In this document: positions 8,410 to 57,690 of the stretch, one piece after another
Position numbering within the stretch: the first letter of the stretch is position 1
How the letters are laid out: every line of letters begins with the position of its first letter
Assembly: GCA_022394775.1 (NCBI GenBank)
Contig: JAGFCB010000030.1
Span: 18,852-82,851, forward strand
Length of the DNA stretch: 64,000 nt
From: Candidatus Poribacteria bacterium
Lineage (GTDB): Bacteria > Poribacteria > WGA-4E > WGA-3G
Direction of reading: 5' to 3'
Notes under the pieces: model-generated
Databases searched by the model: none
The model's input: only the letters and a program-made list of their open reading frames with translations
What the model was told of the DNA's origin: nothing
Made by a program: the position numbers and the translations under genes

Positions 8410-8692
8410 GCTTAACATTAAATAAGTATTGTATTTCACAAGATAGTATAGCCTTCAAATGTGTTCTATCTTCTTTGTCATGCCTGCGCGCGTTTCGGCT
8501 TGCACGAAGCACCTCGTCGCGGGCTATTTTTGTTGCACTCGGTTTCGTCCGAGGCGTGTTATCCATACCACTTTCTATTTCTCCAATCCTTATTTCCAGT
8601 GAGCTCCCCCTTGTGGGAGTTATTTCCAATCGTGATTGTGATTAGATAGGGACGGGTGTTTTTCATGTAATTCTGTAGGAAGGAGAATGAAT

Positions 8693-12515: not shown

Positions 12516-12643
12516 TGTTTTCCGTGAAGTTCCTGAACCTACAGGGTTGCTTAACGAGTCGGCACCAGTCTTAGAAGGTTTCACCGGTTTTGGAGGCAGC
12601 CGCGCTGCACTTACCTATCTCATGCTGAATGCGAAAAAAAGGG

Positions 12644-12672
12644 TTGACAACCGCTGAAAAATCGGATAGAAT
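12644..12672 (+). promoter_or_regulatory. sigma70-type promoter (TTGACA-17-TAGAAT)
   Basis: TTGACA at 12644-12649 and TAGAAT at 12667-12672, upstream of the Rpn-like gene. Confidence 0.55.
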
Positions 12673-12739
12673 AAGGTGAAGATAAAAGGTATCTGAAACG
12701 CCTAATTTTTATCGGGAGATGTGTAACGGGTGAAATCTG

Positions 12740-19784: not shown

Positions 19785-20066
19785 ATGGAAACATCAGAAA
19801 AGAATAAAGCGTATTGGCGGAAGAATCTGCAATACCTCGCTATTTTATTAGCGATTTGGTTTGTTACATCGTATCTCTGCTCAATTGTGTTTGTGGAACA
19901 ACTCGACAAGATTCAATTCTGGGGATACCGACTCGGTTTCTATTTCGCGCAACAGGCATCTATCTGGATTTTTGTTGAACTCATCTTTGTCTATGCGTGG
20001 CTGATGAACCGTTTGGAAAAGAAATACGCACAACCCGAAGATGAAGAGGGGGCAGAACAATCATGA
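19785..20066 (+). CDS. DUF4212 small membrane subunit of a sodium/solute symporter
   Basis: 93 aa with two TM segments, YWRKNL...GFYFAQQ. It overlaps the downstream symporter start by 4 nt, which is the canonical pairing. Confidence 0.75.
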
Positions 20067-20659
20067 GCGTACAAGCATGGACATTTGTGATGGTAGCACT
20101 CTCCTTCGCGTTGTATATCGGTGTCGCGCTCTGGTCGAAGGCACGGTCCACAGGGGAGTTCTATGTTGCAGGGAGCAACGTACATCCGGTCGTCAATGGT
20201 ATGGCGACAGCAGCAGACTGGATGAGTGCCGCCTCTTTCATCTCAATGGCAGGTCTTATTTCGTTTATGGGGCGTGACGGTTCCGTTTACCTGCTCGGAT
20301 GGACAGGTGGCTACGTGCTGCTGGCGTTGTTATTGGCACCCTATCTCCGCAAATTCGGGAAGTATACTGTCCCTGATTTCGTAGGCGATCGGTATTACTC
20401 GCAACTGGCTCGGATTGTCGCCGTGGTGTGTGCAATTTTTGTCTCATTTACTTACGTGGCGGGACAGATGCGGGGTGTTGGGATTGTCTTTTCCCGGTTT
20501 CTGAGTGTCAATGTTGAAACGGGTGTACTCATCGGTATGGGAATTGTGTTTTTTTATGCGGTGCTTGGTGGCATGAAAGGCATTACGTACACGCAGGTTG
20601 CCCAATACTGTGTGCTGATTTTTGCGTTTCTCGTGCCTGCTATTTTATCTCTATCCTGA
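20063..20659 (+). CDS. sodium/solute symporter (SSF, VC_2705/ActP-like), N-terminal part of an interrupted gene
   Basis: Polytopic SSF N-terminus. The frame ends at 20659, and the protein continues in the -1 frame from about 20645. Confidence 0.75.
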
Positions 20660-20688
20660 TTACAGGCAACGCTATCCCACAACTCGGA

Positions 20689-21759
20689 TTGATGGGAAAA
20701 GTGGCAGATGGCTCAGGGCTATATCTTCTGGATCGACTTAACGGCTTGAGCGAGGAACTCGGATTTAACTTATATACGGATGGAAGTAAAAGCACTATCG
20801 ATGTCTTTTTCATCACCGCGGCATTGATGTTAGGAACAGCAGGACTTCCACATGTGATTATCCGATTCTATACCGTGCGAAAAGTCTCTGAGGCACGGAT
20901 TTCAGCAGGATGGGCACTCTTGTTCATCGCGATTCTCTATACAACTGCACCGGCAGTGGCTGTGTTTGCCCGGACGAATCTTCTCAAAACCGTTAGATAT
21001 GAACAAAATGGTGAGTTAACAGATGTCAGATATGAGGATGTGCCGGAGTGGTTTAAAAATTGGGAGGCAACAGGGCTGATTGAATTTGACGATTTGAATA
21101 GCGATGGGAAGATACAGTACCGAGGACCGAAATCAGAGATACAAAATGAACTCGAAATTGATCCAGACATCATGGTATTAGCGAACCCTGAGATTGCGAA
21201 ACTCCCGAATTGGGTTGTCGGATTAGTGGCTGCTGGCGGATTGGCTGCTGCGTTGTCAACAGCTGCAGGTTTGCTATTGGTAATTTCCACGGCGGTCGCG
21301 CATGACTTGCTCAAAGGTAGCATCGCACCGGGATTGTCAGAGAAACAGGAGTTAGCTGCTGCGCGCATTGCAGCCGGTGTAGCCGTCTGTATCGCGGGGT
21401 ATTTCGGCATTAACCCACCCGGGTTTGTGGGGCAAGTCGTTGCATTTGCCTTCGGGCTTGCGGCAAGTTCCTTTTTCCCGGCGATTGTTATGGGCATCTT
21501 CTCCAAACGGATGAACAAAGCAGGGGCAGTCAGCGGTATGATTGTCGGTATCACCTTTACTGCGGCATATATTATCTACTTCAAATTTATTAGTCCGGAA
21601 CTTAATACATCAGAACACTGGTTATGGGGCATTTCACCTGAAGGGATCGGAACGCTCGGCATGGTGCTAAACTTTATTGTCTCGATCAGTGTGTCAGCCT
21701 TGACCGCACCGCCACCTGATGAGGTGAAGGCACTCGTTGAGGACATCCGGGTTCCATAA
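20689..21759 (+). CDS. sodium/solute symporter, C-terminal part of an interrupted gene
   Basis: Continuation of the SSF transporter (GLPHVIIRFYT motif). Its frame is open back to about 20645 ([14 protein letters not shown]). Confidence 0.75.
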   Translation: MMGKVADGSGLYLLDRLNGLSEELGFNLYTDGSKSTIDVFFITAALMLGTAGLPHVIIRFYTVRKVSEARISAGWALLFIAILYTTAPAVAVFARTNLLKTVRYEQNGELTDVRYEDVPEWFKNWEATGLIEFDDLNSDGKIQYRGPKSEIQNELEIDPDIMVLANPEIAKLPNWVVGLVAAGGLAAALSTAAGLLLVISTAVAHDLLKGSIAPGLSEKQELAAARIAAGVAVCIAGYFGINPPGFVGQVVAFAFGLAASSFFPAIVMGIFSKRMNKAGAVSGMIVGITFTAAYIIYFKFISPELNTSEHWLWGISPEGIGTLGMVLNFIVSISVSALTAPPPDEVKALVEDIRVP

Positions 21760-21801: not shown

Positions 21802-23457
21802 ATGAGACACAAGTTGAAAACAACCATTTTTGTTCTTTCGCTTATTAGTATTGCTTTTGCAGCGAATGCCGCAAAGGTTGAAGACTTCATGCCAAAGGAG
21901 AGTGTTCTGTATGTGCAACTTCAGCATATAGACGAGGTCTACAATGAAATTGAGACTTCCGAAACTTGGCAGAAAGCACTTGCCTTGTTGCCAAGTGAGT
22001 CAGAGGGCATTCGACACGGGATCAGGATGGCAGAGGCTTTTCTGAGTACAGATCTGCTAAGCGTCCTTGGAACAATTGGGTATCAGACAGCATTAGCCGT
22101 TTGGTTAGACGAAACACGCGCTGTACAAGTTGGATTCGTTGCCCATTCGGGTGGGAATCTCAGCGAACTCCAACGGTTCACCAAAATTGCTGAGGGTGCT
22201 ATAGGCTTGAGTGGCACAACGACCTTACGCTTGGATGCGGGTGTGTACCAGCGGGTTCGCTACAATGTGCTGGAAATGGATCAGAATATTGCTAAGTATG
22301 GATTTGCCGGTGAGTTTCTCGTGCTTGGTGTAGGCGAAGGGGCTTTCGAGAAATTGATGGATACCTACGGGAAAGCCGCGCCATCTATCCGGGATAACGA
22401 GGTATTTGGCGGGATGCGAAAGAAAATGGGCTCAGGAGAAGCGGTCATATTTGCTGACATGGAACACGCGCTCTCCTTGGTAGAGATAGGCGATTTAGAT
22501 GAGTGGAGACGGACACGGTTTCCTATCTTTCAATCTGTATGCATCCGGCTTAATTTGATGGAACCCGGTCCTCTCTATCAAATGGCTGTGCGATTCAACC
22601 GTAATGCCCCAGATTTTTCAGAAAACGAGATCAGTTTGTTTCTGGAGAAAGGTAAGAAACTCGAAATTTTAAACGCGTTGTCCGGTGAAGAGGATATATT
22701 TGTTGCCGTAACCCCGAATGTCATGAAAGGCATCTGGGAAATCGTTCGTTCCGAGATGGAGAAAAATCTGACAGATACCCTCATCGAAGGCATCTCTTAT
22801 GTGGAGGGGCTTTTGAACCTTGATCTGGAAGATGATGTGATGACCGCGTTAACTGGAGAGCTTGCTTTGTCGGTCGCTGACTTATCTCAATTTGATCCAA
22901 CAGCCTTTGAGGCTCTCGAGATTAACGCTGATAATTCGTTTACAATAGATGCTGCTGCCGTAGAAACACACGGCGGTTTAATCTTCAAGCCTCAGAATCT
23001 TCTGAAATGGAATCAATTCACGAATAGTCTCTCTAACCTACAAAATATTTCCGTTTCTCAAACGGTTTATAATACAGCAACGCTGTCGGAGTTCGCGACA
23101 AATATCTATTATAGTGAGGTGGACGGTCGGTTTCTTTTGAGTTTTTCAGAAGAGCAGATGCACGCACTCGTAGATGGAGTAAAAGAGAAAAAGCGCCCCG
23201 CTTATTTGAAGCAAGTACCGGAAAACCCGATAGTATTTGCACACCTAAATTTAGCACGAGTTTTAGAAGCAACAGGGGAAGGAACACCGCCTGCTGACAA
23301 AGTCCTTGTCAGTTCCGAAGAAACAACACCATTGCTGGCATGGATTTCGGTAGAAGATAGTGAGGTATTGCTTGAAGTCGTACTATCAATAGAAGATACA
23401 CCACTTGAAGTCATCGCGAAACTTGTTCCGTTCTACGTTTGGTCTATGGAAAATTAG
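21802..23457 (+). CDS. secreted hypothetical protein, possibly DUF3352-like
   Basis: Signal peptide; FMPKESVLYVQL near the N-terminus and DLEDDVMTALTGELALSV resemble DUF3352 landmarks as I recall them. Confidence 0.6.
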   Translation: MRHKLKTTIFVLSLISIAFAANAAKVEDFMPKESVLYVQLQHIDEVYNEIETSETWQKALALLPSESEGIRHGIRMAEAFLSTDLLSVLGTIGYQTALAVWLDETRAVQVGFVAHSGGNLSELQRFTKIAEGAIGLSGTTTLRLDAGVYQRVRYNVLEMDQNIAKYGFAGEFLVLGVGEGAFEKLMDTYGKAAPSIRDNEVFGGMRKKMGSGEAVIFADMEHALSLVEIGDLDEWRRTRFPIFQSVCIRLNLMEPGPLYQMAVRFNRNAPDFSENEISLFLEKGKKLEILNALSGEEDIFVAVTPNVMKGIWEIVRSEMEKNLTDTLIEGISYVEGLLNLDLEDDVMTALTGELALSVADLSQFDPTAFEALEINADNSFTIDAAAVETHGGLIFKPQNLLKWNQFTNSLSNLQNISVSQTVYNTATLSEFATNIYYSEVDGRFLLSFSEEQMHALVDGVKEKKRPAYLKQVPENPIVFAHLNLARVLEATGEGTPPADKVLVSSEETTPLLAWISVEDSEVLLEVVLSIEDTPLEVIAKLVPFYVWSMEN

Positions 23458-23498
23458 TAGACTTTAGCCTTATAGTTCAACTAATTAAGGGGGTAACG

Positions 23499-24680
23499 AT
23501 GTTAATTCAGAAACGACTTATACAGACTGTAAAAACAAAGCGATGGTTTTGGATAACAACAGTGGTTGCTACGGTGTTGCTCGGTTTTGGAATTAGCCAG
23601 CTGCTGCAATTTCAGGAGGCGACAGCAGAATCAGAAAAGGAAGTCCTTCCGCAACTCACTGCGGAACTTGATACGCTTAAAGCAGAATATAACGCACAGC
23701 AAGCAAGGTGGCAATCGAATTTACTCGCGCAGGTCGCGCCAACTTTAACGGACGAGCCAACCGCTGTAAAACGTCAATTTGTCGATTTCCTTGAAGAAAT
23801 TGGGAGTCCGGGGACGGATGCGCTTGTCTTCATGCTGCAGGATCCATCGAGAAGTATACGCAGAAAGGCAGTTGAAGCGTTAGGTGAAATCGGTGAAGAT
23901 GCGCGGAAAGCCGGTAAGAATTATGATACTGCGGCGATCGCTTTGACGACAGCACTCAAAGACGATTCCCCTGAGGTTTTCCGTGAGGCAGTTCAAGAAT
24001 TAGATGATGTCGCCCCGACATCTGCGAAGTCTCTTGCCTTTGTTGTTCCTGCACTCATTGAGGTCAGGCGTAGAGGTTCATCAAATACGCGTGACGACAT
24101 CATTGATGCTTTAGGACGGATCGGCGAGGCACTCGCAAAAAATGGACAAGAGACTGACACCATCCGCGATGCTTTAATTCTGAGTATGGATGACGATTCA
24201 ACAAAAGTCCGAACAAACGTGATAGTTGAGTTGTCTGATATACGAGCGGCTTCCCCTGAGACGTTCGCCGCGTTGATACCTGCCCTGTCAGATGATGCTA
24301 AGTCGGTACGGGCACGTGCTGAAGACGTGTTGATTAAGCTCGGTAAAAGCCGTGCTGCGAGTATCACACCGATGTTAGTAGATGCACTGACGAACAATCC
24401 ATCAGCCGCTACGCGTGGACACATCGTTGATGTGCTTGGTGCGATCGGTGAGGCACTCGTAAAGAAGGGTGAATCCGATGCGATGGTTGTAAAACCGCTC
24501 CTTGTGGCACTGACGGATACCGACTCGGATGTTCGACGGAACGCCGCTGACGAATTAGGTGAGATGCGCACGCAATCCCCCGATGCGGTAACCGCATTGA
24601 CCCATGCACTGGAGGATAGTTCTAAAAACGTTCGTAGTGCTGCGCAAAAGGCGATCCGACGCATTGAGGCAGCGAAATAA
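23499..24680 (+). CDS. membrane-anchored HEAT-repeat (PBS-lyase type) protein
   Basis: An N-terminal TM helix, then about 8 repeats of the form D-x-S-x-x-VR-x-x-A-x-x-ALG-x-IG. The ATG at 23499 follows AAGGGGG. Confidence 0.8.
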   Translation: MLIQKRLIQTVKTKRWFWITTVVATVLLGFGISQLLQFQEATAESEKEVLPQLTAELDTLKAEYNAQQARWQSNLLAQVAPTLTDEPTAVKRQFVDFLEEIGSPGTDALVFMLQDPSRSIRRKAVEALGEIGEDARKAGKNYDTAAIALTTALKDDSPEVFREAVQELDDVAPTSAKSLAFVVPALIEVRRRGSSNTRDDIIDALGRIGEALAKNGQETDTIRDALILSMDDDSTKVRTNVIVELSDIRAASPETFAALIPALSDDAKSVRARAEDVLIKLGKSRAASITPMLVDALTNNPSAATRGHIVDVLGAIGEALVKKGESDAMVVKPLLVALTDTDSDVRRNAADELGEMRTQSPDAVTALTHALEDSSKNVRSAAQKAIRRIEAAK

Positions 24681-24971: not shown

Positions 24972-26759
24972 ATGCAACAGATACAGAATACAGCTTCGGT
25001 TGTTGAGGTGATGCGCCAAGCATCTCTCATCTCGGAGCAAGTCTATACAGATATCGTCGCAGAATTAAAAGAAACTGATGCCTCCGAAGCAGCTGTGCTT
25101 TCCAAGCATGGCGTGCCGTCCGACCTTCTTGCGCTTGCTACAAAGAGTGTAGAGTCTGGAACACCTCTTGTCCAATTGGAGGGGGTTAATCCTGAAGACA
25201 ACACACTTGAAAAAATATCCGCGGGGTTCGCATATCGTAGCAAAATTGTTCCCATTGAATTAAACAACGATGAACTTACCGTAGCAATGGCGGATGCCTT
25301 AGATGTCGTTCTTATTGACGAGATTGAACTCATCACCAATTGTCGAGTGATCCCAGTTCTTGCTGGTGAGGCAGATATCGATGAAGCGATTATCCGTCTC
25401 TATGGACGCACAGCTGAGAGCCTTCTCAGTGCTGGTATCAAGGGACCTGTCGGGGCAACTGAGACCCTTGAACGTGAGACCATTGAGGACTTCGGGATCG
25501 ATGAGAAAGACCTTAGTCAAGATCCGACAGTTATCCACGCCGTTGACCAGATGATCATTGATGCGGTTCGGATGGGGGCAAGTGATATCCATATTGAACC
25601 TTATCCAACGCAGCTTAAGATCCGGTTTCGTGTTGACGGCGTGTTAGAAGACCAACCGCAGCCGCCTGCCTATTTGCAATCGGCGATCACGTCCCGTATC
25701 AAGATTATGGCTGATATGGATGTCGCCGAGCGTAGACGTCCACAGGACGGAAAGATCAGCAGGCAAATTGGGAGTGTCGGAAACAGGCAAATAGACCTTC
25801 GTGTTTCTACTGTCCCGACTGTTGCAACCCCGCATGGCGAAAGCGTTGTTCTCCGTATCCTTGATCGGCAGTCTATTGACTTTGGACTTGCAGAACTCGG
25901 CTTAACCGAAGACAACCTCGAACTTTTTGAGCGCATGATTCGTAAACCGCACGGCATTATCCTTGCCACCGGTCCAACGGGTAGCGGGAAAACGACATCA
26001 CTTTACGCTTGTCTAAAAGAGATTAACTCGCCTGACGTTAAAATCATTACCCTTGAAGATCCAGTTGAATATGAGTTAGAAGGTATCAACCAAATCCAAG
26101 TCAATCCGGATATTGATTTCACTTTCGCCATTGGGCTACGCCACATCCTGCGTCAGGACCCAGATAAAGTCTTGGTAGGTGAGATTCGTGACTACGAAAC
26201 CGCAGAGATGGCGGTTCACACCTCACTGACGGGACACCTTGTCTTTAGCACACTTCACACAAACGATGCTCCCGGCGCTATCGCGCGACTTATTGAGATG
26301 AATGTTGAACCTTATCTCGTCGCTTCGACGGTGGAAGGGATCATTGCCCAAAGACTTGCTCGCCGTGTTTGCCAAGCGTGTTGTGAGATGTATTCGCCCG
26401 ACGGAGATGAATTGATGGGGCTTATAGGGAACGGTAATAACGGTAATGGACACAAGGTTACCATCCCCCAAGACCTTGAAATTCCGCGAGCGGTCGTCGG
26501 AAGCGGGTGCAAAGAGTGTCGAGGCAGAGGGTACAGGGGGAGAATTGGCATTTTTGAAGTTTTGTTCATGACTGATGAAATCCGTTCAAAAGCACTTGAA
26601 CAGGCATCAACAAATGAGATTCGCCGTCTGGCAGTCCAATTGGGCATGAAAGGCTTACGTGAAGACGGGTGGCGCAAAGTTACTGCCGGATTTACAACAG
26701 TTGACGAAGTCCTGCGATTGACGCAAGAAGATGAATTCGATTTCGGGGAAGTTGTTTAA
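24972..26759 (+). CDS. gspE: type II secretion / type IV pilus assembly ATPase
   Basis: T2SSE_N-type N-domain, Walker A GPTGSGKTT, Asp/His boxes, and a tetracysteine CQAC...CKEC motif followed by GYRGRIGIFEV. Confidence 0.92.
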   Translation: MQQIQNTASVVEVMRQASLISEQVYTDIVAELKETDASEAAVLSKHGVPSDLLALATKSVESGTPLVQLEGVNPEDNTLEKISAGFAYRSKIVPIELNNDELTVAMADALDVVLIDEIELITNCRVIPVLAGEADIDEAIIRLYGRTAESLLSAGIKGPVGATETLERETIEDFGIDEKDLSQDPTVIHAVDQMIIDAVRMGASDIHIEPYPTQLKIRFRVDGVLEDQPQPPAYLQSAITSRIKIMADMDVAERRRPQDGKISRQIGSVGNRQIDLRVSTVPTVATPHGESVVLRILDRQSIDFGLAELGLTEDNLELFERMIRKPHGIILATGPTGSGKTTSLYACLKEINSPDVKIITLEDPVEYELEGINQIQVNPDIDFTFAIGLRHILRQDPDKVLVGEIRDYETAEMAVHTSLTGHLVFSTLHTNDAPGAIARLIEMNVEPYLVASTVEGIIAQRLARRVCQACCEMYSPDGDELMGLIGNGNNGNGHKVTIPQDLEIPRAVVGSGCKECRGRGYRGRIGIFEVLFMTDEIRSKALEQASTNEIRRLAVQLGMKGLREDGWRKVTAGFTTVDEVLRLTQEDEFDFGEVV

Positions 26760-26782
26760 GTCTCTTTTTATGGAGAGTTTCA

Positions 26783-27568
26783 ATGAAGTTAATCGCGATT
26801 GGCAGTGCGATTTTACTCTTTACACTCTCGGCATCCGCGGGTACATTTCTGGAAGATTTTGATAATAACTTCGGTGTATGGCAAGAACTTCTCATGGCTG
26901 ATGCGGTGCCGGGTTCTTGGGAGATCGTTGCGGGTGAACTTCACGCGGTAAGTCCAGATGGCTGGACCCGTTTCCTCACGGTTGGCGATGAGACGTGGCG
27001 AGATTACACCTTTGAATTTGATGTCAAACCGCTTGATAATCGAGGTCCCAGCAATATTGTTATTACCGCCCGCATCAAAGGGAGTTGGGGTGTATGGTGC
27101 CTCATCGGCGATTTGCCATTTGTTGACAACATCTCCGAAGTTAAGTTTGCTGCTGGCAATTTTCGGGACCCAAATACGTTCTTATTTTCGCATAGCAAAC
27201 GCTTTCGATTTTTGAAATTAAACAGATGGTCGAAGCTAAAGTTGGAAGTAAAAAAAGACATCCTAAACTTTTGGATTAATGGAAATCTGGTTATTGGACC
27301 TGTGCAACTACCAAACCGTAGAAGTTTTGAGCGTTTTGATGCTATCAGAAAAGAGCATGCCGCTAAAGAAGGGCGGGAATTGGCAGCACTGCAGCTGAAC
27401 GGGCTTCAAGACTTTTTGACAGGCGCCGCGGGCTTAGGGCTCGCAAATCAAACAGCGAGATTCGACAATGTAGTGATCACCGGCGACAGTATCCCGAACA
27501 GGGATGGGTTGTTAGTAAACCCCAGGACGAAACTGACTACGATGTGGGGCAACCTAAAGCGTTTTTAG
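26783..27568 (+). CDS. secreted LamG/DUF1080-like jelly-roll protein with a conserved C-terminal tail, embedded between gspE and gspF
   Basis: Signal peptide MKLIAIGSAILLFTLSASA; W...SWEIVAGELH...WRDYTFEFDVK resembles the DUF1080 layout. Ends ...VNPRTKLTTMWGNLKRF. Confidence 0.7.
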   Translation: MKLIAIGSAILLFTLSASAGTFLEDFDNNFGVWQELLMADAVPGSWEIVAGELHAVSPDGWTRFLTVGDETWRDYTFEFDVKPLDNRGPSNIVITARIKGSWGVWCLIGDLPFVDNISEVKFAAGNFRDPNTFLFSHSKRFRFLKLNRWSKLKLEVKKDILNFWINGNLVIGPVQLPNRRSFERFDAIRKEHAAKEGRELAALQLNGLQDFLTGAAGLGLANQTARFDNVVITGDSIPNRDGLLVNPRTKLTTMWGNLKRF

Positions 27569-27606
27569 TCTATACTTATGGTTCTATATTGTGACGGGGG
27601 TTGATT

Positions 27607-28833
27607 GTGCCGTTATTCCGATATGAAGCACTCACACATAGTGGCGGTAGTGTGAAAAACACACTGGAAGCAGACTCTAAAGCCGAGCTCATCTCTCGGT
27701 TACGGCAGATGGGTTATTGGCCCACGGATATTGTTGAGGAGACAGAGGAAGATGCCTCAAACGATGTTCGCAAATGGCTTAAAATCGGCAGTGGCGGTGT
27801 TAAAGCGGCAGACGTTGAGTTCTTCACGTATCAATTGGCGACGCTGGTGAATGCTCACGTCCCACTACCTCGTGCTTTAGAGGTCACTCTCAGTCAGATC
27901 CAGAACCCAGCACTCAACCGTATCGTCTCTCAAGTGAAATATGATGTTGAACACGGTGCAACTTTTAACGATGCGCTGACACAACACCCAAAGGCATTTT
28001 CCGACCTCTATATTAATATGGTAAAAGCCGGAGAGAGTGGTGGTGTCTTGGGTTTAGTCCTCGAGCGGCTTGCCGAATTTGCGGAACGCCAAAGACTTCT
28101 AAAAAACGATGTTATCTCAGCACTTTTTTATCCTATTATTCTGTTGACGCTCAGCGTTTCAGCTGTAGCGGTACTCATGATTCTTGTAATACCAAAATTC
28201 ACGGCGATGTTCAATGATCTCGGGGTCGCATTGCCGATGCCAACACGCATCCTCATTGGTGCAACCGATGCCTTCCAAACCTACTGGTGGGTCGGGCTAC
28301 TCGCCATCATCTTAGGTGTGGCTGGGCTAAGGCAATATCTCCGGCTCGAAGCAGGCAAAGTCTGGTTTGACCGGTTGAAACTCAAAATACCACTTATCGG
28401 ACCAATAATCAGCACGTTTGCGATTGTCCGTTTTACGCGAACGATGGCAACACTTTTGGAAAATGGCGTACGGATGCTGCCTGCCCTCCAGGTCGTCAAA
28501 GATACGATAGGCAACAAGGTATACAGCAACGTGATCGCCGAAGCGGAAGTAGAGGTTGAGCAAGGTTCTACGCTCTCTCGCGAGCTGAGCAAAAGTAAGG
28601 ATTTTCCTGAGTTCGTCACGCACATGGTGGCTGTTGGCGAGGAGTCAGGTGAACCTGTCCACATGCTCGGTAAACTTTCAGAATACTATGATGTAGAAAT
28701 AAAAAAGAGCCTCGAACGGCTAACCAGCTCGATCGGTCCTCTTGTCATTCTACTGATGGGAGTGATTATCGGTTTCATCGCAGTAGCGATGATTCTTCCG
28801 ATCTTCGAGGCGAATCAATTACTAAGCGGTTAA
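27607..28833 (+). CDS. gspF: type II secretion inner-membrane platform protein
   Basis: PLFRYEAL start, two T2SSF repeats and three TM segments. The GTG at 27607 is better spaced from the GGGGG run than the TTG at 27601. Confidence 0.9.
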   Translation: MPLFRYEALTHSGGSVKNTLEADSKAELISRLRQMGYWPTDIVEETEEDASNDVRKWLKIGSGGVKAADVEFFTYQLATLVNAHVPLPRALEVTLSQIQNPALNRIVSQVKYDVEHGATFNDALTQHPKAFSDLYINMVKAGESGGVLGLVLERLAEFAERQRLLKNDVISALFYPIILLTLSVSAVAVLMILVIPKFTAMFNDLGVALPMPTRILIGATDAFQTYWWVGLLAIILGVAGLRQYLRLEAGKVWFDRLKLKIPLIGPIISTFAIVRFTRTMATLLENGVRMLPALQVVKDTIGNKVYSNVIAEAEVEVEQGSTLSRELSKSKDFPEFVTHMVAVGEESGEPVHMLGKLSEYYDVEIKKSLERLTSSIGPLVILLMGVIIGFIAVAMILPIFEANQLLSG

Positions 28834-28895
28834 TATGTATCTTAGGTGCAAAACGCGCCTTACGATGTTATATAATAACACAGGAGTAGACTTAA

Positions 28896-29351
28896 ATGTT
28901 CAAGCAACTAAAATCCGATGAATCCGGATTAACGCTAATTGAACTGACGATTGTTATTGTTATTTTGGGGATTTTAGCAGCCTTTATTGCCCCGCGGGTC
29001 ATGAATGCCCCGCAAAAAGCAAATGTTGCGAAGGCTCAAACAGAGATTGGCGGTCTGAAAACGGCATTAGAACAATATAATTTGGCAACAGGCGAATATC
29101 CGACAACCGAACAAGGATTAAACGCCTTGTGGCGTGCGCCGAGTCCTGCGCCAGCAAACTGGGATGGTCCGTATATCGGTAGCCCGAATTTTGTAGATCC
29201 GTGGGGTAATGCCTACGTCTATCGCCATCCGGGTACCCATTATGGTTACGACTATGATCTTTATTCAATGGGTAAAGATGGTAAGGTTGGGGGTACCGAG
29301 TTGGATGCGGACATCACGAATTGGGTTGAAGAATCAACCGCAGTGTATTAA
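28896..29351 (+). CDS. gspG: major pseudopilin
   Basis: Prepilin leader ...ESG/LTLIELTIVIVILGILAA. The GspG signature is present: KAQTEI..L..AL..Y, DGPYI, DPWGNAYVY, YSMGKDGKVGG. Confidence 0.9.
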   Translation: MFKQLKSDESGLTLIELTIVIVILGILAAFIAPRVMNAPQKANVAKAQTEIGGLKTALEQYNLATGEYPTTEQGLNALWRAPSPAPANWDGPYIGSPNFVDPWGNAYVYRHPGTHYGYDYDLYSMGKDGKVGGTELDADITNWVEESTAVY

Positions 29352-29357
29352 AAAACA

Positions 29358-30059
29358 GTGAAACAGACGACAAGTAGGCGAGGTGTTTTCATCTCGCCTA
29401 TTTCTCAACCCCAAAGTGGTTTCACGATCACTGAATTATTGCTCGTTTTGGTGCTAATCGGCATATTATCTGCGATTTCCATGCCGACGCTGAAGGGATT
29501 CGCGACAACGCGTCGATTAAAAGCATCAGCCTCTACAATCCGCAATCTCCTCACATTCGCGCGGGATATGGCAATCACCGATCAAACGGCACATTTGGTT
29601 GTCTTTGATATTGACAACGGTCAGTGCTGGCTTGCTTCCAGTGAAACATTTAACCCAAGTACGCCACTCTCATCAGCACTTACCGCCCGAAATTCTACAG
29701 TAGGCACAGCAGCACAAAATAATACGAACGTAACCCCGCAGGCAACAACAAATTCTGTTGAACAAGGGATGTCGGGGCGTGCGAGTGGTATTTTGGGCGT
29801 GCCGCATCCGATGGAGCCGGGGGTTACATTAGCAGCACTGGAGACGAATCGCAATGGTCAGACTGTTCAAAATGATTCGGGCGTAGGGTACATCTATTTT
29901 TCACCGAGTGCATCCTCAGAGGCGGCACTTGTGTACCTTCAAAACACACGAAATCAGGTCATGACTGTTTCTGTTGAAGCTGCGAGCGGTCGCGTTATTG
30001 TGCGACAACTTACATCTGAAGAAATTGAAACATTAGGCTTTACAACTTCACAAAATTAA
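29358..30059 (+). CDS. minor pseudopilin, GspH-like by position and N-terminal pattern
   Basis: QSG/FTITELLLVLVLIGILSAI prepilin N-terminus, then LKASASTIRNLLTFARDMAI. GTG start. Confidence 0.7.
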   Translation: MKQTTSRRGVFISPISQPQSGFTITELLLVLVLIGILSAISMPTLKGFATTRRLKASASTIRNLLTFARDMAITDQTAHLVVFDIDNGQCWLASSETFNPSTPLSSALTARNSTVGTAAQNNTNVTPQATTNSVEQGMSGRASGILGVPHPMEPGVTLAALETNRNGQTVQNDSGVGYIYFSPSASSEAALVYLQNTRNQVMTVSVEAASGRVIVRQLTSEEIETLGFTTSQN

Positions 30060-30091
30060 CTTGCTAATATCTCCGAGCAGAGATTAAAAGT

Positions 30092-30529
30092 ATGAAACTA
30101 CTAATTAAACACTCGGTATCAAGAGAAAAAAACGGTTTTACGCTCGTTGAGATACTGGTAACATTAGCAATTTTGGCGGCGGTACTCCCTGCGCTTTTAC
30201 ACGTCTTTGCGTCTGCTGCACGGAATCAAGGGCTTTCAGACAACACGACCACGGCACTTTACCTTCTTAAATTTCGGATGTCAGAAATTGAAATGGCGGG
30301 TTATCCGGATGTAGGTGAGGACACAGGCGAATTCGGTAATAGTACCCGCTACCGCTGGAGTTCTATCGTTGAAGACGTAGAATCTGAAGAAGTTGAAAAT
30401 ATCCGACAGGTTCAAGTAACCGTTACGTGGCAGCATAGAAACCGAGAACGTTCTATGTCTATGAACACCTATATCGCTGACCGACAAAATGCGCAAACGC
30501 AGCAAGGACAACAGTCTGGTGGTCGATAA
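30092..30529 (+). CDS. minor pseudopilin, GspI-like
   Basis: KNG/FTLVEILVTLAIL. Small size and the RYRW...IRQVQVTVTWQ pattern are typical of GspI. Confidence 0.7.
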   Translation: MKLLIKHSVSREKNGFTLVEILVTLAILAAVLPALLHVFASAARNQGLSDNTTTALYLLKFRMSEIEMAGYPDVGEDTGEFGNSTRYRWSSIVEDVESEEVENIRQVQVTVTWQHRNRERSMSMNTYIADRQNAQTQQGQQSGGR

Positions 30530-31480
30530 TTGTTTCGCAGCGTTTCAATGGATACCGTAGACATGAAAATTGAAAAAACATCCCCTCAGGCAACGAATGA
30601 AAGTGGGTTAACACTCATTGAAATGCTCATGGCAGTTAGCATCCTGGTTATTATCGGCGGGTCAGCGTATTTCGCTTTCAAGTCGGCTGTGGATGCCTAC
30701 CACCAGACAGAAGAAAAAATATTGGCTGCGCAAAGGTGTCGTTTTGCGATGGATCGCCTCGTAACCGACTTGGGGAACATACAAGTCTCACCTCAAGAAC
30801 CAGAGCTGGCACTCTACACGCAAGATGGACCCAGCCAGTTAGGCGATAGGGATATGCTCAGTTTTGTCACGCTCGTGAAGACAGATCCCGATCCTTTTAT
30901 GGAGCAGCTTTCAAGTTTCCAATCTCAAAATGCTTCACAAGTGCCTTTGCCACTTTTAAGCGACGTTCAACGTGTGGCGTACTTTGTCGCTGCAGAACCG
31001 GCCGCCGGTGAATCCATTCTGAATTCAGATAATTTCCGAGGTGCTTCTACAGAAAATATAGGTGCCGAAGAGAATAGTAGATATGCCCTCTTTCGCGTTA
31101 CCACCACAACTCTCGATCCAGAAGTTGTTATCGGTCCGTTCTTGCAAGGTGGAACGCCCCCAGAGACAGATGAAAACGGTGAACCGATTTACGTTGATGT
31201 CGCAACGCTCATTACGGGACTTGCTAATTTTGATCTGCAGTATTTTGACGGCGAGGCGGAAGTGTGGAACGCCTCTTGGGATGACCCTGAAAGTGTTCCA
31301 AGTGCTATCCAAATCCTAATAACTGTCCAAGGAGAAACACAGAAAGCTGCAAGTACAAATACCACCCAGTTTGCGTCCCAAAATCAACCAGTGATGCCAT
31401 CAAATAGTATGACACAATCAACGATGGTGTATCTCCCAGCAAGTGCAACGGCTGGTGGCGGTGCGGAGGGTGCCCCTTAA
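30530..31480 (+). CDS. minor pseudopilin, GspJ-like
   Basis: ESG/LTLIEMLMAVSILVIIGG prepilin N-terminus, then ...RFAMDRLVTDLGN. The start is uncertain (TTG 30530, ATG 30548 or ATG 30563). Confidence 0.65.
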   Translation: MFRSVSMDTVDMKIEKTSPQATNESGLTLIEMLMAVSILVIIGGSAYFAFKSAVDAYHQTEEKILAAQRCRFAMDRLVTDLGNIQVSPQEPELALYTQDGPSQLGDRDMLSFVTLVKTDPDPFMEQLSSFQSQNASQVPLPLLSDVQRVAYFVAAEPAAGESILNSDNFRGASTENIGAEENSRYALFRVTTTTLDPEVVIGPFLQGGTPPETDENGEPIYVDVATLITGLANFDLQYFDGEAEVWNASWDDPESVPSAIQILITVQGETQKAASTNTTQFASQNQPVMPSNSMTQSTMVYLPASATAGGGAEGAP

Positions 31481-31492
31481 GAGGGTCGATAG

Positions 31493-33022
31493 ATGATGCT
31501 ATTTACAAACAGGTTTACCTATCCATTCTACAAGGAAGAGCGTGGATTATCCCTCGTTTCAACGCTCTGGATACTCACGATTCTCTCTATTTTGGCGGCA
31601 CAACTGCTTTATTCGATCCATATAGAACAGCGGACCCAACGGAATTTCTTGGATAGAGGGAAGTATCACTACGCTGCAAAGGCAGGATTTGAGTGGACAC
31701 TCGCTGTCATGCGAACGGACCAGACCCCTTTCGATTCGCTTGGTGAGAGTTGGGCAGCACCTATCACGGGGCAAGTTGCAGATGGGATTCAGACAGGAAA
31801 ATTCCTAAACTATAACGTGGCAATCACGGATGAAGCCTCGAAGGTTAATATCAATGCCGCGGATGTTGGACTTATCAGTAATTTGCTGGCACAGGTGGGG
31901 GCTTCACCGGATGATGCCCAGACAGAGGAACTTGCTAACGCCATCGTAGAAGGGCAGCCGTATCGGACAGTTCGAGATCTCGCCAGAGCAGTAGGGATGA
32001 CATCTGAGTTCCTTTATGGCCCCCAACAAATGGCGGCACCTACACAGGGCGTTGCGAATACACAAAGCACTACAGGCACAGCCCCAGGGCTTTCAACGGC
32101 GGGTCTTGGAAATCTACAGAACACGTCAGTAGATCCACAACCAGGGCTTGTGGATTTGGCGACCATATATTCGATTGATACAAGCACCGATTCCAATGGA
32201 GAACCGCTTATTAACGTCAATACAGCGGACACACAGCAGTTGACACAAATTGAAACGCAACTCGGTCAAGTCTTTTCAGAAGCTGAGGCGGAATCACTGA
32301 TTCAGCAGCGTGAGTTTGACAAATTCGCTGCCCTTATGGACGTGCAAGCAGTATCTGATGATCTCTTTAACAATATCCGAGACAAAATTATCGCTGAAAA
32401 TCCGAGTGGCGAGACAAGAGAAAATAACGAAGAAGACGACGATGACGGACAAATTAATATCAATACTGCTGATGTTGAGACCTTGGAATCTCTGGATGGT
32501 GTTGACCGCGGTATTGCCGATCGTATTATTGATCATCGGAACTCGCAAGGTTTTTTTCAGAACATAGATGCTATTAAAGATGTCAAAATATTAACACAGC
32601 AAGAATTCATCGGTATTGTTGATAAAATAACGCTTAAAGATGGAGATACGCGCAGCGGACTTGTTAATATAAACACCGCTTCGCCGGAAGTCTTAGCACT
32701 GCTACCGGGGATGGACCTGGAAAAAGCACGGGCAATCGTTGAACGCCGTGAACAAGATGCGCCAGACGATTCACCGATACAGAATTATACTGACGAAGAA
32801 ATACAGGGAAATCCGTTCACCAGTATCTCACAACTGTCAGAGATGGAAGAGATCAACTTTGAGACGTTCCGTGAAGTTGCCGATTCGGTAACCTACCGCT
32901 CGCACGGTTATCGTATTGAGGCAAACGGTGTTGATGCTGCAGGTAGAATTGTTTCGACCTGTATCGGTATTATTGATCGGACGGGTGACCAAGTCATCGT
33001 CCAATATTGGCGACAGAATTAG
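31493..33022 (+). CDS. gspK: minor pseudopilin GspK-like with three helix-hairpin-helix modules
   Basis: RG/LSLVSTLWILTIL lacks Glu+5, as GspK does. There are repeated INxNTA motifs (INVNTADTQQL, ININTADVETL, VNINTASPEVL). Confidence 0.75.
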   Translation: MMLFTNRFTYPFYKEERGLSLVSTLWILTILSILAAQLLYSIHIEQRTQRNFLDRGKYHYAAKAGFEWTLAVMRTDQTPFDSLGESWAAPITGQVADGIQTGKFLNYNVAITDEASKVNINAADVGLISNLLAQVGASPDDAQTEELANAIVEGQPYRTVRDLARAVGMTSEFLYGPQQMAAPTQGVANTQSTTGTAPGLSTAGLGNLQNTSVDPQPGLVDLATIYSIDTSTDSNGEPLINVNTADTQQLTQIETQLGQVFSEAEAESLIQQREFDKFAALMDVQAVSDDLFNNIRDKIIAENPSGETRENNEEDDDDGQININTADVETLESLDGVDRGIADRIIDHRNSQGFFQNIDAIKDVKILTQQEFIGIVDKITLKDGDTRSGLVNINTASPEVLALLPGMDLEKARAIVERREQDAPDDSPIQNYTDEEIQGNPFTSISQLSEMEEINFETFREVADSVTYRSHGYRIEANGVDAAGRIVSTCIGIIDRTGDQVIVQYWRQN

Positions 33023-33125
33023 AGGAATAGCTTTCAGCGATCAGTAAAGAACGGCGTTTTGTTTGGGTATTTCCGCAAGCGTATCAAAAACCTCTTCTGC
33101 CTGATTGCTAACTGCTGACGAAAAA

Positions 33126-34910
33126 ATGGCAAAAAAACGAGTTGTGGCGATAGATATCGGCACGCATACAGCGAAAATGGTTCAGTTTGAACAGTCATCC
33201 GGGACTTTGCGTCTCACCAATGCGGGAGTCGTTACATACACAGACAAGGATGATAAGCAACAGGTGACTGAATCGATAAGACACCTTTGGGCATCCTTAG
33301 GCAGTCCGGCACAGAAAGGAAATCTGCTTTCGCTATTCGATAGGAGTGACCTTGAGGTTGTGCTGGCGCTGCCGAGATCTCTGGTAAGCACAAAACGTTT
33401 AGCCAACTTACCAACCGCAGCCGATGATCAACTCGCGAATATCGTTGCAATTGCGGCGGAATCGGAACTCCCATTTCAAATTGAAGAAGCAATTTTTACC
33501 TACCATGATGTGAGACGAACGCCGGATGCCACTTCGGTAGAGTTGATATCCACCCGACATGCGTCCGTCGCAAGTTATCTGGATTTTCTTGAACAGATCG
33601 GTGTGTCCGCATCTGCGGTCACGCCTTCAATGATCGCTATTGCCGGAACAGCGGCAAATAGCGGATGTACCCAGCCTACATTTGTTGTTGACATTGGTGC
33701 CTCACAAACCGATTTTTGTTTCATTGAGGGTGGTGCCCTGCGTTTTTCTCGGAGTTTCCGTTTGGGTGGTGACAAGCTCACTGAACATATCAGCGAAGAA
33801 TTGAATGTTAATAGTGAAACGGCAGAAGAAGAAAAACGACATATTCCGGCGGATGAAGCACCTACATCTGCGTGGACAGCTCAATTGGTTGGCGAGTTAC
33901 GGCGTTCTATTGCTGCTGCGACTGCACATCGGGCATCGGATGGTTTTGATGCTGCGGAAGAAACCGATGGTGTTGAAAGTGCCAGGTTGTCCGAAACCGA
34001 GACGGAGCTCTGGTTGTGTGGTGGTGGGGCACGTGTTCCTGAGCTTGCAGCTGTTTTAGAAGAAGGACTTGACATTCCGACATCCTTTTGGAATCCGCTT
34101 CGTGCTATCGAGCAACAGCCAAATATTAAAATTGATCCTCAAGACGCAGAGATCAAAACCATACTTGAGGAGTGGGGAGATACCCTTGCGGTTCCATTAG
34201 GCGTAGGATTTAGTACTTTAGATTCGACGCTCCAACCTTCCTTGTTGCCACAAGAGGCTGCCGCGACGTTGACGCAAACGACACGGCAACGCCAAATTTT
34301 TGCTACAGCGGGGTTGGGTGTTTTGATTGTTGGTGGTATCCTCTTTGGTAGTTATACGCTTCAACGTTCACAAAAGCATAGAACAGAAATGGTTGATGCA
34401 CGCCTTGCGAGTTATGCGCAACCCGTGGCAGCCGCGCAAGCACAGCTTGGGCGTGAATTGGCACTCACAGAGATGTTAGCGCATAATGTGTCCCCGCTTG
34501 ATATTTTGCATGCTCTTAGTGAAATGTTTAGCGATAGAACGCAAGTCGCTTGGACCAATTTCAATATTATCAACCTTCATGAACCTCAGACGGCAAGAAT
34601 TACTTTTAATTTGGAAGGTGCGTCCCATAACGCTATAAATACACTTTTGCGCGCGCTTGACCGATCTGGAGTCTTTACAAATGTTCGGCCCGGTGAGGTT
34701 ACGACAATTTCTCAAAATAGAAAACAGATCTTCCAAGTACAGGTGCGGTGTAACTTAACAGCGTCCGCGGTTCGGGCATTCGCTAAGAAACGCTATCCGA
34801 TGCCTCAGCCTCAGATTGATAAAACGGCAGAGGTGGCAGAATTACAAATTGCGTCGCCTTCGTCTAACACCCTTGAATTTGAAAATAAAAAACCCGAGAA
34901 AGAGGAATAA
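33126..34910 (+). CDS. PilM-like actin-fold ATPase domain fused to a TM plus PilN-like domain (functional GspL equivalent)
   Basis: VVAIDIGTHTAKMV and VVDIGASQTDF phosphate motifs, LCGGGA, then a TM helix IFATAGLGVLIVGGILF and a periplasmic domain. I prefer the ATG at 33126 to the TTG at 33105. Confidence 0.7.
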   Translation: MAKKRVVAIDIGTHTAKMVQFEQSSGTLRLTNAGVVTYTDKDDKQQVTESIRHLWASLGSPAQKGNLLSLFDRSDLEVVLALPRSLVSTKRLANLPTAADDQLANIVAIAAESELPFQIEEAIFTYHDVRRTPDATSVELISTRHASVASYLDFLEQIGVSASAVTPSMIAIAGTAANSGCTQPTFVVDIGASQTDFCFIEGGALRFSRSFRLGGDKLTEHISEELNVNSETAEEEKRHIPADEAPTSAWTAQLVGELRRSIAAATAHRASDGFDAAEETDGVESARLSETETELWLCGGGARVPELAAVLEEGLDIPTSFWNPLRAIEQQPNIKIDPQDAEIKTILEEWGDTLAVPLGVGFSTLDSTLQPSLLPQEAAATLTQTTRQRQIFATAGLGVLIVGGILFGSYTLQRSQKHRTEMVDARLASYAQPVAAAQAQLGRELALTEMLAHNVSPLDILHALSEMFSDRTQVAWTNFNIINLHEPQTARITFNLEGASHNAINTLLRALDRSGVFTNVRPGEVTTISQNRKQIFQVQVRCNLTASAVRAFAKKRYPMPQPQIDKTAEVAELQIASPSSNTLEFENKKPEKEE

Positions 34911-34912
34911 AA

Positions 34913-34998
34913 CAGGACTTACGCAGCCCCCACTGCAGGCGGGGTTTCAAACCCCGCCTGCGTAAGATGTCCGTTATCATAGAAAAATGCGTAAGTCG
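34913..34998. mobile_element. MITE/REP-like element, AGGACTTACGCA family (copy 2) inside the T2SS operon
   Basis: CAGGACTTACGCA ... TGCGTAAGTCG ends. The internal perfect hairpin is GCAGGCGGGGTTT-CA-AACCCCGCCTGC. It begins 3 nt after the stop codon of the preceding gene. Confidence 0.7.
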
Positions 34999-35110
34999 AA
35001 TAAAATATAAGTTTCGGTCAGTACGGTTTTCAACCGTCTGCTCGTAAAGATAGGCTTCAGATGTTTTAACGCTTTAGCCTACACAGATAGGATTTATAGA
35101 GGTTGGCTTT

Positions 35111-36355
35111 ATGGAACTGGATCTCCAATTAACACCCAGGAGCCGAGTTTTACTGGGCATTTTAGGTGCTGTACTTCTGCTTCTAATCGCGGTACGGGGT
35201 GTCCCTACCATCTATCACTTATTTGTAAATCAGGGTGCCAAAGTTAAACAAGAACAGTTGATAAAAACTGAGAATTTGGTGCATGCTGCAGAGGTACTTA
35301 AACCGATTGAGCCCGAGATTTACAAAGCTACTGGGTTGGCACAAGAAGACCAACCTGCGCAAACAGGTGCTCAGGGTGCAGCGACCCTCTTTGACACCGA
35401 ACTGCCGGAGACGGTCATTCGGGCACGCGTGGATGCGCTCATAAAACGTGCCGGTATCCAACAGAATTACCAACTCCTGACGAAGCCCGGTTCCGGAAAA
35501 CAGACTCAAAAATTGACAATACAAAATCGGGAGAGGCTGGTTCTCTATCTCTATTTCAAGCATATAGAAACAGAGGAAACGGAGCTTGCGGAGATAGCAG
35601 AACAGGCGGCTGAAGCTGAGACATTCGACATGTTGATGGATGCGTGGCTGTCAGAGGATACAGAATCCGAGACTGATGAAAAAATGGACGAGACAGACGC
35701 GGCGGTATCTGATGCGGAACCCCCTATAGAGGTGTCAGAATCTGCGGAGTGGAGATTCGCCTCGCTCCCCGAGACAATACCTATCCGACTCCGAGTTCAA
35801 CTCGCTGCATATCTGAAAAACATGGTGATGCAACAGCTCCGCGGCGCGACAGATTTCAGACAAGGCTTCTTTGAAGCCCAAATTCACAAAGTTAAAACTG
35901 CTGCTACGCCGGGTATCTTTGGTATCGGTGCTAAACCCGCTACGGTTGAAATCCAGTTACGAAGAAAGAGTGGGCTTCTGGATCTTCTGACCCAAACTGA
36001 GGATGAATATGCTCAGGAAGGCCCCACTCCAGGTGAACTTCAAGCGGCATTGGTCGAGTATATCGGAGAGATTCAGTCGCAAACCGCAATCCTTTTGGAG
36101 CAGCTTGCGTTGGCACCATCGACTTATGAGACGCGGCTTTACACCGTGGAAATGAAATTCAAAACAGATCTTGAAAAACTCGTTAACTTAAACCATCTCA
36201 TTGAAACAAACGCTAAATGGCTAACCGTCCGCGATTTACGAATCTCTGCGAATAAACAAGCATCGCGTTCCGAATCACAACGCGGTCGGAATCGCGAAGG
36301 CGCTGAAGGATCAGACTTGAATGTTGAAATCCTTCTCCTCGCTCAAATATTTTAA
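35111..36355 (+). CDS. bitopic membrane protein in the GspM/PilO position, with an acidic low-complexity insert
   Basis: N-terminal TM helix VLLGILGAVLLLLIAV and an E/D-rich segment. I recognise no family motif, so the assignment rests on position only. Confidence 0.6.
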   Translation: MELDLQLTPRSRVLLGILGAVLLLLIAVRGVPTIYHLFVNQGAKVKQEQLIKTENLVHAAEVLKPIEPEIYKATGLAQEDQPAQTGAQGAATLFDTELPETVIRARVDALIKRAGIQQNYQLLTKPGSGKQTQKLTIQNRERLVLYLYFKHIETEETELAEIAEQAAEAETFDMLMDAWLSEDTESETDEKMDETDAAVSDAEPPIEVSESAEWRFASLPETIPIRLRVQLAAYLKNMVMQQLRGATDFRQGFFEAQIHKVKTAATPGIFGIGAKPATVEIQLRRKSGLLDLLTQTEDEYAQEGPTPGELQAALVEYIGEIQSQTAILLEQLALAPSTYETRLYTVEMKFKTDLEKLVNLNHLIETNAKWLTVRDLRISANKQASRSESQRGRNREGAEGSDLNVEILLLAQIF

Positions 36356-36493
36356 ATTTACCGAGACCGGTGGATCGGTTTCAGGTCTTAAAAAACTGCC
36401 TAAATCTTGTTGAGGCTCTATGGCATTCATACCTTAGAAGCTTCTGGTAAGGTTTGCGGGAAAACGTGATTAAATCAAAAAGGATCGGATGTT

Positions 36494-48325: not shown

Positions 48326-48390
48326 CAGGACTTACGCAGTTTTCCATGATAACGGACGTATGACACCCTGCAGAGGGCTGCGTAAGTCCT
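48326..48390. mobile_element. MITE/REP-like element, AGGACTTACGCA family (copy 3) between the kinase and regulator genes
   Basis: CAGGACTTACGCA at 48326-48338 and TGCGTAAGTCCT at 48379-48390 form perfect 12-bp inverted ends. The interior is the reverse complement of part of copy 2. Confidence 0.75.
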
Positions 48391-57632: not shown

Positions 57633-57690
57633 CAGGACCTACGCACGCACCGCAGGCGGGGTTTCAAACCCCGCCTGTAGTATAAGTCCT
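57633..57690. mobile_element. MITE/REP-like element, AGGACTTACGCA family (copy 4, slightly degenerate)
   Basis: CAGGACCTACGCA ... GTATAAGTCCT ends and the same internal hairpin GCAGGCGGGGTTTCAAACCCCGCCTG as copy 2. Confidence 0.7.

Follow-up and report, generated by a model that had tools for sequence, protein, structure and literature searches.

To our knowledge, nearly everything known about type II secretion systems (T2SSs) comes from Proteobacteria. In Xanthomonas, the Xps genes are arranged in the order xpsE, F, G, H, I, J, K, L, M, C, D, with the prepilin peptidase encoded outside the cluster and with no pilotin and no GspA/B, and xpsE and xpsF form separate transcription units (PMC11981180). 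Within the related type IVa pilus (T4aP), PilM together with PilN is equivalent to GspL, PilO to GspM, and PilP to the HR domain of GspC (PMC4471445). The Akkermansia muciniphila cluster Amuc_1098-Amuc_1102 has been linked to pili-like structures (PMC5332112), and GspC is mandatory in the final TXSScan model of the T2SS (PMC6668835). Here, a cluster of eleven co-oriented genes was studied at positions 24972-39418 of a 64,000-nucleotide stretch of the genome of a sponge symbiont, Candidatus Poribacteria (assembly GCA_022394775.1, contig JAGFCB010000030.1, positions 18,852 to 82,851; 'the window'). Judged by homology, the cluster probably encodes the single T2SS of this genome, Xps-like in gene order and divergent in sequence. 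No description of this Poribacteria system was found in the searchable literature.

The open reading frame (ORF) listing and the Pfam and NCBIfam scans reproduced exactly the order and coordinates of the eleven genes given by an earlier reading made from the letters alone (the sequence-only reading). The genes are as follows:

24972..26759, + strand: gspE-type assembly ATPase, 595 aa, with an MshEN N-domain, a T2SSE core (PF00437, 424 bits) and CxxC...CxxC
26783..27568, + strand: signal-peptide DUF1080 / 3-keto-disaccharide-hydrolase (LamG-like) protein, 261 aa, ending KLTTMWGNLKRF (PF06439, 27.2 bits against a cut-off of 26.8)
27601..28833, + strand: gspF inner-membrane platform protein, matched twice by PF00482 (GspF model 394.7 bits, above PilC at 327)
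28896..29351, + strand: gspG major pseudopilin, G↓LTLIE (TIGR01710, 148.7 bits against a cut-off of 88.85; PF08334 match)
29358..30059, + strand: gspH-like minor pseudopilin, G↓FTITE (N_methyl; TIGR01708, 41.8 bits, cut-off 80)
30092..30529, + strand: gspI minor pseudopilin, G↓FTLVE (TIGR01707, 42.7 bits, cut-off 44.35)
30530..31480, + strand: gspJ-like minor pseudopilin, 316 aa, G↓LTLIE (N_methyl; weak gspJ match, 24 bits, cut-off 64.85)
31493..33022, + strand: gspK tip pseudopilin, 509 aa, without Glu5 and with three helix-hairpin-helix (HhH) repeats (NF037980 GspK, 101.7 bits, cut-off 130)
33105..34910, + strand: putative GspL equivalent, 601 aa, with a PilM-type actin-fold domain, a transmembrane (TM) helix and a PilN-like periplasmic domain (PilM_2 90 bits, T2SSL 20.5, PilN 20)
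35111..36355, + strand: candidate GspM equivalent, 414 aa, with an N-terminal TM helix, a long helical and acidic region and a C-terminal PilO/GspM fold (GspM_XpsM over residues 295-412, E = 1.3e-4)
36494..39418, + strand: gspD secretin, 974 aa, with a signal peptide, an N0-like start, six Secretin_N modules and the core (TIGR02517, 388.4 bits against a cut-off of 351.35)

The cluster resembles Xps in its gene order with the secretin last, in a prepilin peptidase encoded elsewhere, in having no GspN, pilotin or GspA/B, and in the separability of E and F. It differs in an L protein whose cytoplasmic domain is fully PilM-type where Xps has the reduced GspL domain, in an M two to three times longer, in a K with three HhH repeats, in a secretin with six N modules compared with three, and in a GspC-type gene that, in the window's genus, lies off the operon in five or six copies.

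The assembly surveyed comprises 5.9 Mb on 331 contigs and is 93.8% complete. A tblastn search with all window proteins revealed no paralogues of E, F, L, M, or D elsewhere in the genome, and a Pfam T2SSE search found one ATPase of that family in the whole genome; GspF, the secretin and PilM are likewise present once each, and neither search detected PilT or a second system in the genome. Given the single ATPase and the absence of paralogues of E, F, L, M, and D, the cluster is the genome's only type IV filament machine. The L gene was present in all 31 of the relatives searched, which span eight genera and four families, and the order E-F-G-H-I-J-K-L-M-D was constant in the nine fetched regions and in 76 of 76 Candidatus Poribacteria loci. 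Because the search for related loci with the L alignment returned Poribacteria only, any spread beyond the phylum rests on two metagenomic contexts. One is a set of contigs with an L homologue, 31% identical, in the same operon; there M bears HHH_3, the C slot is filled by a 267-aa gene and the secretin has 972 aa. In the other, a second distant relative sits after a T2SSG...T2SSJ-T2SSK set. These distant operons indicate that the design is not limited to one genus.

The filament and outer membrane components are T2SS-type. The G protein and the secretin pass the NCBIfam equivalog cut-offs for GspG and GspD, the F protein scores higher as GspF than as PilC, and neither PilT nor PilA was found. 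G, H, I, and J all carry G↓(F/L)T(L/I)xE, K is without Glu5, and the four minor pseudopilin genes stand in H-I-J-K order with gspH, gspI, gspJ, and GspK as their best models, all below the equivalog cut-offs. The ten best PDB matches of the secretin are all GspD, and it reached 190 bits with PilQ against a cut-off of 284. Seen from the pilus side, there is no PilT and no PilA-type pilin (the PilA model gave the G protein 27 of 400 bits), PilM and PilN are not separate proteins, the Pfam PilP model matches nothing, and the secretin falls below the PilQ cut-off.

The GspL slot was examined with a ten-sequence L profile, which matched PilM structures from Myxococcus, Pseudomonas, and Thermus over ~ 345 positions (E 3e-29 to 1e-21) but, up to E = 1, not a single GspL structure, which argues that the L domain is a full PilM-type actin fold. 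PilM_2 covers residues 16-343, the TM helix lies at ~ 398-416, the PilN match is weak (500-547), and T2SSL remains below its cut-off (20.5 against 25.5 bits). The prediction of a PilM-like domain fused to a TM helix and a PilN-like domain in this slot was thus borne out.

The M slot was likewise found to hold the enlarged protein that had been described, with one N-terminal TM helix and an acidic insert of 23 Asp/Glu among 60 residues (151-210). Its assignment as the GspM equivalent draws on the weak NCBIfam match (GspM_XpsM, 21.7 bits against a cut-off of 60) and on a fold search. The AlphaFold2 model, with a predicted local distance difference test (pLDDT) score of 65, shows a long helix, an alpha/beta unit that the acidic insert, itself disordered, breaks in two, and an alpha-beta-beta unit at the C terminus. 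The best fold match of the model was Amuc_1100, followed by PilO (E 0.009-0.5). An M profile detected no GspM or PilO among PDB sequences, the only match being a weak one to the ComEA HhH (E = 0.2) contributed by families other than that of the window. A GspC or HR domain concealed in the long M was considered and rejected, as the model consists of helices and ferredoxin-like alpha/beta units without a beta-sandwich and a BLAST search of the GspC-type proteins described below against M was empty.

It could be that this platform serves a surface fibre, either a type IV pilus-like structure or the 'pili-like' apparatus of the Akkermansia Amuc_1098-1102 kind, on a PilM platform with a PilB-like ATPase. 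L scores 115 bits with the Amuc_1101 model and its structural matches are confined to PilM, M has Amuc_1100 and then PilO as its best fold matches, the highest raw scores among solved relatives of the ATPase belong to PilB of Geobacter and Myxococcus, and the Akkermansia cluster is tied to pili-like structures (PMC5332112). The likeness to Amuc_1098-Amuc_1102 extends to a PilM-like protein of ~ 600 aa, a PilO-like partner and a secretin; however, the family cut-offs are missed by a wide margin (115.5 of 650 bits for L on NF045709, the Amuc_1101 family, and 63.3 of 750 bits on NF042912, the Amuc_1098 family), and the Amuc cluster as described has five genes with no E-F-G-K set adjoining (PMC5332112). 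A surface fibre is judged unlikely, given that there is no PilT or second ATPase and no PilA-type major pilin, that G passes the GspG cut-off, that a GspK-type tip is present, and that the secretin passes as GspD and fails as PilQ. The higher PilB scores are in part due to longer constructs, with core identity being 48-52% to GspE and 43-49% to PilB.

Compared with the T4aP platform of Myxococcus, Pseudomonas, and Thermus, the likenesses are the alignment of L with PilM (E = 3e-29), the PilO fold at the C terminus of M, and HR proteins that match PilP as well as GspC, whereas the differences are the fusion of PilM to PilN, the lack of PilT, PilA and an AMIN-domain PilQ secretin, and pseudopilins of GspG-K type. 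The sequence-only reading had proposed a hybrid of T2SS and type IV pilus. That proposal holds for L, which is PilM-type, and for the ATPase, which stands as near to PilB as to GspE; the rest is T2SS-type and, because PilM plus PilN is a recognised equivalent of GspL, 'hybrid' overstates the case. By analogy, the PilM-TM-PilN fusion with its PilO/GspM-fold partner is the T2SS platform architecture in an older sequence guise. As to canonical matches that the same reading might have overlooked, GspC homologues do exist, unlinked, and GspM is weakly recognised; L remains non-canonical.

The ATPase itself scored 561.5 bits as PilB and 559.4 bits as GspE, each under its own NCBIfam cut-off, and the core identities given above were measured against labelled GspE and PilB sequences. 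A maximum-likelihood tree compared ten sequences of the Poribacteria type with eleven labelled references, whose sources were PDB alignments and annotated records of plasmids or chromosomes. In this unrooted tree the Poribacteria-type sequences grouped with full support in a clade of their own, which met the GspE and PilB clades in a polytomy; the Aeromonas sequence occupied a very long branch and a Comamonas 'gspE' was unplaced; as no outgroup was included, the tree gives no decision between T2SS and T4aP affinity.

The K protein scored 74.9 bits with T2SSK, 109 with HHH_3 and 69.3 with the ComEA HhH region (cut-off 53.1). This last match raises the question of a DNA-uptake (competence) pseudopilus, in which ComEA-like HhH domains on K, and on M elsewhere, would bind DNA for ComEC. 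Consistent with such a role, ComEC is encoded in the genome, an HHH_3-type segment occurs in M of other Poribacteria families and of the distant lineage, and the cluster is the sole type IV filament machine present. T2SSK presumably belongs to the same HhH superfamily as the ComEA HhH, however, so that cross-matches are expected; ComEC was present in 10 of 14 control genomes, unlinked to the cluster, the window's own M is without the HhH segment, and the G-K set, the gene order and the secretin are of T2SS type. DNA uptake is therefore considered very unlikely. The observation of an HhH segment in periplasmic M refers to alignment columns ~ 100-155 and to 11658-12866 of locus L112; M proteins of the window's genus are without it.

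In the secretin, fragment scans placed the Secretin_N modules at ~ 152-208, 218-314, 321-414, 419-504, 513-600, and 607-692, and the secretin core at 770-945. The earlier estimate of about six N-type modules agrees with the N0-like start and six modules found; the usual GspD has three in Pfam architectures. In a Poribacteria clade in which L is 42-45% identical, two tandem full-length secretin genes of ~ 1000 aa each, ~ 60% identical to the GspD of the window, close the operon (loci L081-L083, L087-L092, L095-L097, and L100-L101). Taken together, L, the long M with its PilO/GspM-fold C terminus, the HhH-rich K, the secretin with N0 and six N modules, and the equidistant ATPase are, as far as sequence comparison goes, real and conserved deviations.

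GspC, GspN, and a prepilin peptidase had been reported as absent in and beside the cluster. Within the window this is correct, and GspN was not found anywhere in the genome; the genome does, however, hold an unlinked peptidase and five or six GspC-type genes. In one sister family of Poribacteria (f3), a 280-aa gene between M and D encodes a protein with a TM helix and a small beta domain that bears the motif FYxxIIDNNLFRPLG; this family and the distant metagenomic relative share with Xps a GspC-type gene between M and D. Five intact relatives, of which one is divided between the ends of two contigs, and a remnant lie on other contigs of the window's genome. The loci of the family, and that of the peptidase, are as follows:

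contig C29, 1386-1868, - strand: GspC/PilP-type HR family member
contig C290, 946-1515, + strand: GspC/PilP-type HR family member
contig C315, 1110-1964, - strand: GspC/PilP-type HR family member
contig C301, 4999-5478, + strand: GspC/PilP-type HR family member
end of contig C113 and start of contig C231: further locus of the family
contig C249, 18385-18573: further locus of the family
contig C17, 53471-54007: remnant of the family
contig C211, 4342-5130: prepilin peptidase (A24_N_bact 110.8 bits, Peptidase_A24 59.8 bits)

The GspC-type proteins are small and TM-anchored and have the motif FYxxIIDNNLFRPLGW in common; their genes are dispersed, in genomic surroundings unrelated to secretion. 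A profile of seven GspC-type sequences had Legionella LspC as its only significant PDB match (E = 4.4e-4). The AlphaFold2 model, whose beta domain has pLDDT > 90, gave PilP or GspC/PulC HR domains as its five best fold matches, with template modelling scores of 0.71-0.73 on 3oss_C and 6hcg_e. Pfam T2SSC (PF11356) matched four of the GspC-type genes and one further locus, one of them over the gathering score (27.9 against 27 bits), and the Pfam PilP model had no match in the genome.

The peptidase emerged, with both A24 domains, from the genome-wide search for pilD/gspO that the sequence-only reading had put forward as a check. In a T2SS this component may be a loner. Here it is last in a row at 208-5130 of C211, preceded by genes for a histidine kinase, for a sigma-54 response regulator and for a GspG-like pseudopilin. 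A second orphan GspG-like gene lies at 13568-14047 of contig C269, and both orphans have Gln for Glu at +5.

The non-proteobacterial character of the cluster recalls the atypical T2SSs of Chlamydia and Bacteroidetes, which standard models also class poorly or as generic; Chlamydia is without minor pseudopilins and GspL/M, whereas the full set is present here, and the Bacteroidetes system branches with the T4aP, whereas the secretin and pseudopilins here are of GspD and GspG type (PMC6668835).

A secreted-protein gene had been noted as splitting gspE and gspF, and a signal-peptide gene does occupy 26783-27568, beginning 23 nt after E and ending 32 nt before F. Its DUF1080 family is one that we take to be a member of the concanavalin/LamG-like superfamily. 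The inserted gene was found at 17 loci, all of the same genus, with two copies in three of them and a constant tail, KL(A/T/V)T(M/V/L)WGxLK(R/G)(F/L/Y); neither the closest relative (L 95% identical) nor any other family has it. By this distribution it is a polymorphic accessory insertion and not part of the system's design.

Similar tails are widespread. The genome has ~ 165 ORFs that combine a signal peptide with a C-terminal ...KLxTTWGxIKxx, the pattern being (V/P)(E/D)P..KL(A/T)TTWGx(I/L)K, which one to four residues separate from the stop. Most of these ORFs are 210-350 aa long and many form tandem arrays, with a few of 700-1600 aa. In contrast to exosortase- or sortase-type signals, the tail has no TM segment behind it. 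Two further tail-bearing genes follow gspD:

39530-40255, + strand: signal-peptide gene, 241 aa, tail KLAVTWATLKQ
40550-41428, + strand: signal-peptide gene, 292 aa, tail of the same kind, KLATTWGSIKQTR

Of 76 loci, 30 carry homologues of these two genes downstream of gspD, 12 of them immediately behind it; a clade in which L is only 42-44% identical is included. The gene between E and F, like the pair behind gspD, is accessory, and since all three lie inside or adjoin the operon they are likely to encode cargo. With ~ 165 tail genes per genome some adjacency to the operon is expected; the conservation after gspD supports a cargo link without proving it.

The 86-bp element with a GC hairpin that had been described inside the operon was also recovered:

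34913..34998, no strand: 86-bp dispersed repeat in the L-M spacer, with a 10-bp outer (terminal inverted) stem and a 13-bp GC hairpin

The genome contains 56 copies of at least 75 nt, on 42 contigs, and 81 partial copies; the predicted RNA fold of the element has an energy of -53 kcal/mol (z -5.3), and the L-M spacer of congeners without it measures 28-51 nt. Partial copies of the family also lie at 57633-57681 and 48329-48357 of the window. A role as an intrinsic terminator was rejected, there being no T-run and no + strand match in the scan. The element appears to be a mobile repeat inserted in the L-M spacer, through which transcription probably reads. The gene between E and F and this repeat, two of the six oddities listed in the sequence-only reading, are lineage-specific insertions.

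With two insertions interrupting the operon and GspC unlinked, the cluster might be read as a decaying remnant, broken by the E-F gene and the L-M repeat and deprived of GspC. All eleven frames are open and of full length, however, and the components are 63-94% identical to their orthologues in intact congener operons; the E-F insertion occurs in 17 other species with intact operons, xpsE and xpsF are separate units in Xanthomonas as well (PMC11981180), and the repeat lacks a T-run. Decay is thus regarded as extremely unlikely. Foreign genes were seen in the operons of other Poribacteria too. At locus L019 (genome G026) a DNA methyltransferase and a putative restriction enzyme lie between K and L (7628-9435 of the oriented locus), and at L021 a repeat-rich acidic lipoprotein gene lies between J and K (7071-7925); the operon evidently tolerates interruption.

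Immediately upstream of gspE, at 21802-24680, the window encodes a 551-aa signal-peptide protein and a TM-anchored HEAT-repeat protein; all through the genus this pair is syntenic with the operon, a linkage that other families do not show. Before it, at 20063-21759, a VC_2705-type sodium/solute symporter is split into two ORFs of 198 and 356 aa, which cover model positions 2-189 and 209-547 and suggest a frameshift or an assembly error.

Several observations weigh against the identification of the cluster as a T2SS with off-operon GspC partners. NCBIfam equivalog cut-offs are missed by the ATPase and by F, H, I, J, K, and M, and the ATPase tree is unrooted, with its three clades in a polytomy. 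Confidence in the M model is modest (pLDDT 65), and the fold matches that it gave, at E 0.009-0.5, are weak. The existence of one or more working GspC-type partners is deduced solely from the position of a homologue in the sister family, and the cargo status of the adjoining genes solely from where they lie.

By homology with T2SSs that have been studied, the T2SS proposed here would work as follows. Folded proteins exported by Sec would be pushed through the GspD secretin by a short GspG pseudopilus with a GspH-I-J-K tip, built on GspF and powered by the single GspE-type ATPase. The PilM-type cytoplasmic domain of L would tether this ATPase at the membrane, and its periplasmic PilN-like domain would pair with the PilO/GspM-fold domain of M. 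The link to the N0 ring of the secretin would most likely be made by the small TM-anchored GspC/PilP-type HR proteins, encoded off the operon in five or six copies, and the prepilins would be cut by the unlinked prepilin peptidase. The six-module neck of the secretin and the long periplasmic stretches of L and M would suit a machine bridging a wider gap than its proteobacterial counterpart does.

A bolder proposal can be made, which we regard as speculative and rather improbable as a whole. Poribacteria and at least one other uncultured lineage may possess a distinct, early-branching T2SS that keeps a platform of PilM/PilN/PilO grade and in which, in the window's genus, GspC, released from the operon and multiplied into five or six paralogues, would provide interchangeable couplers of cargo or secretin for the ~ 165 signal-peptide proteins with a KLxTTWGxIK end, with the tail as a linear sorting tag. 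Three tail proteins are embedded in or abut the operon. We know of no linear sorting tag for any T2SS.

A complete, phylum-wide T2SS with a recognisable PilM/PilN/PilO platform would be a concrete intermediate for the proposed descent of the T2SS from the T4aP. Annotation of its parts as "PilM" or "hypothetical", and models that require a linked GspC, would misclassify such systems. For the Poribacteria themselves, one envelope-spanning export route of its kind would now be identified, and the operon-linked LamG-like proteins would be the first candidates for export into the sponge matrix.

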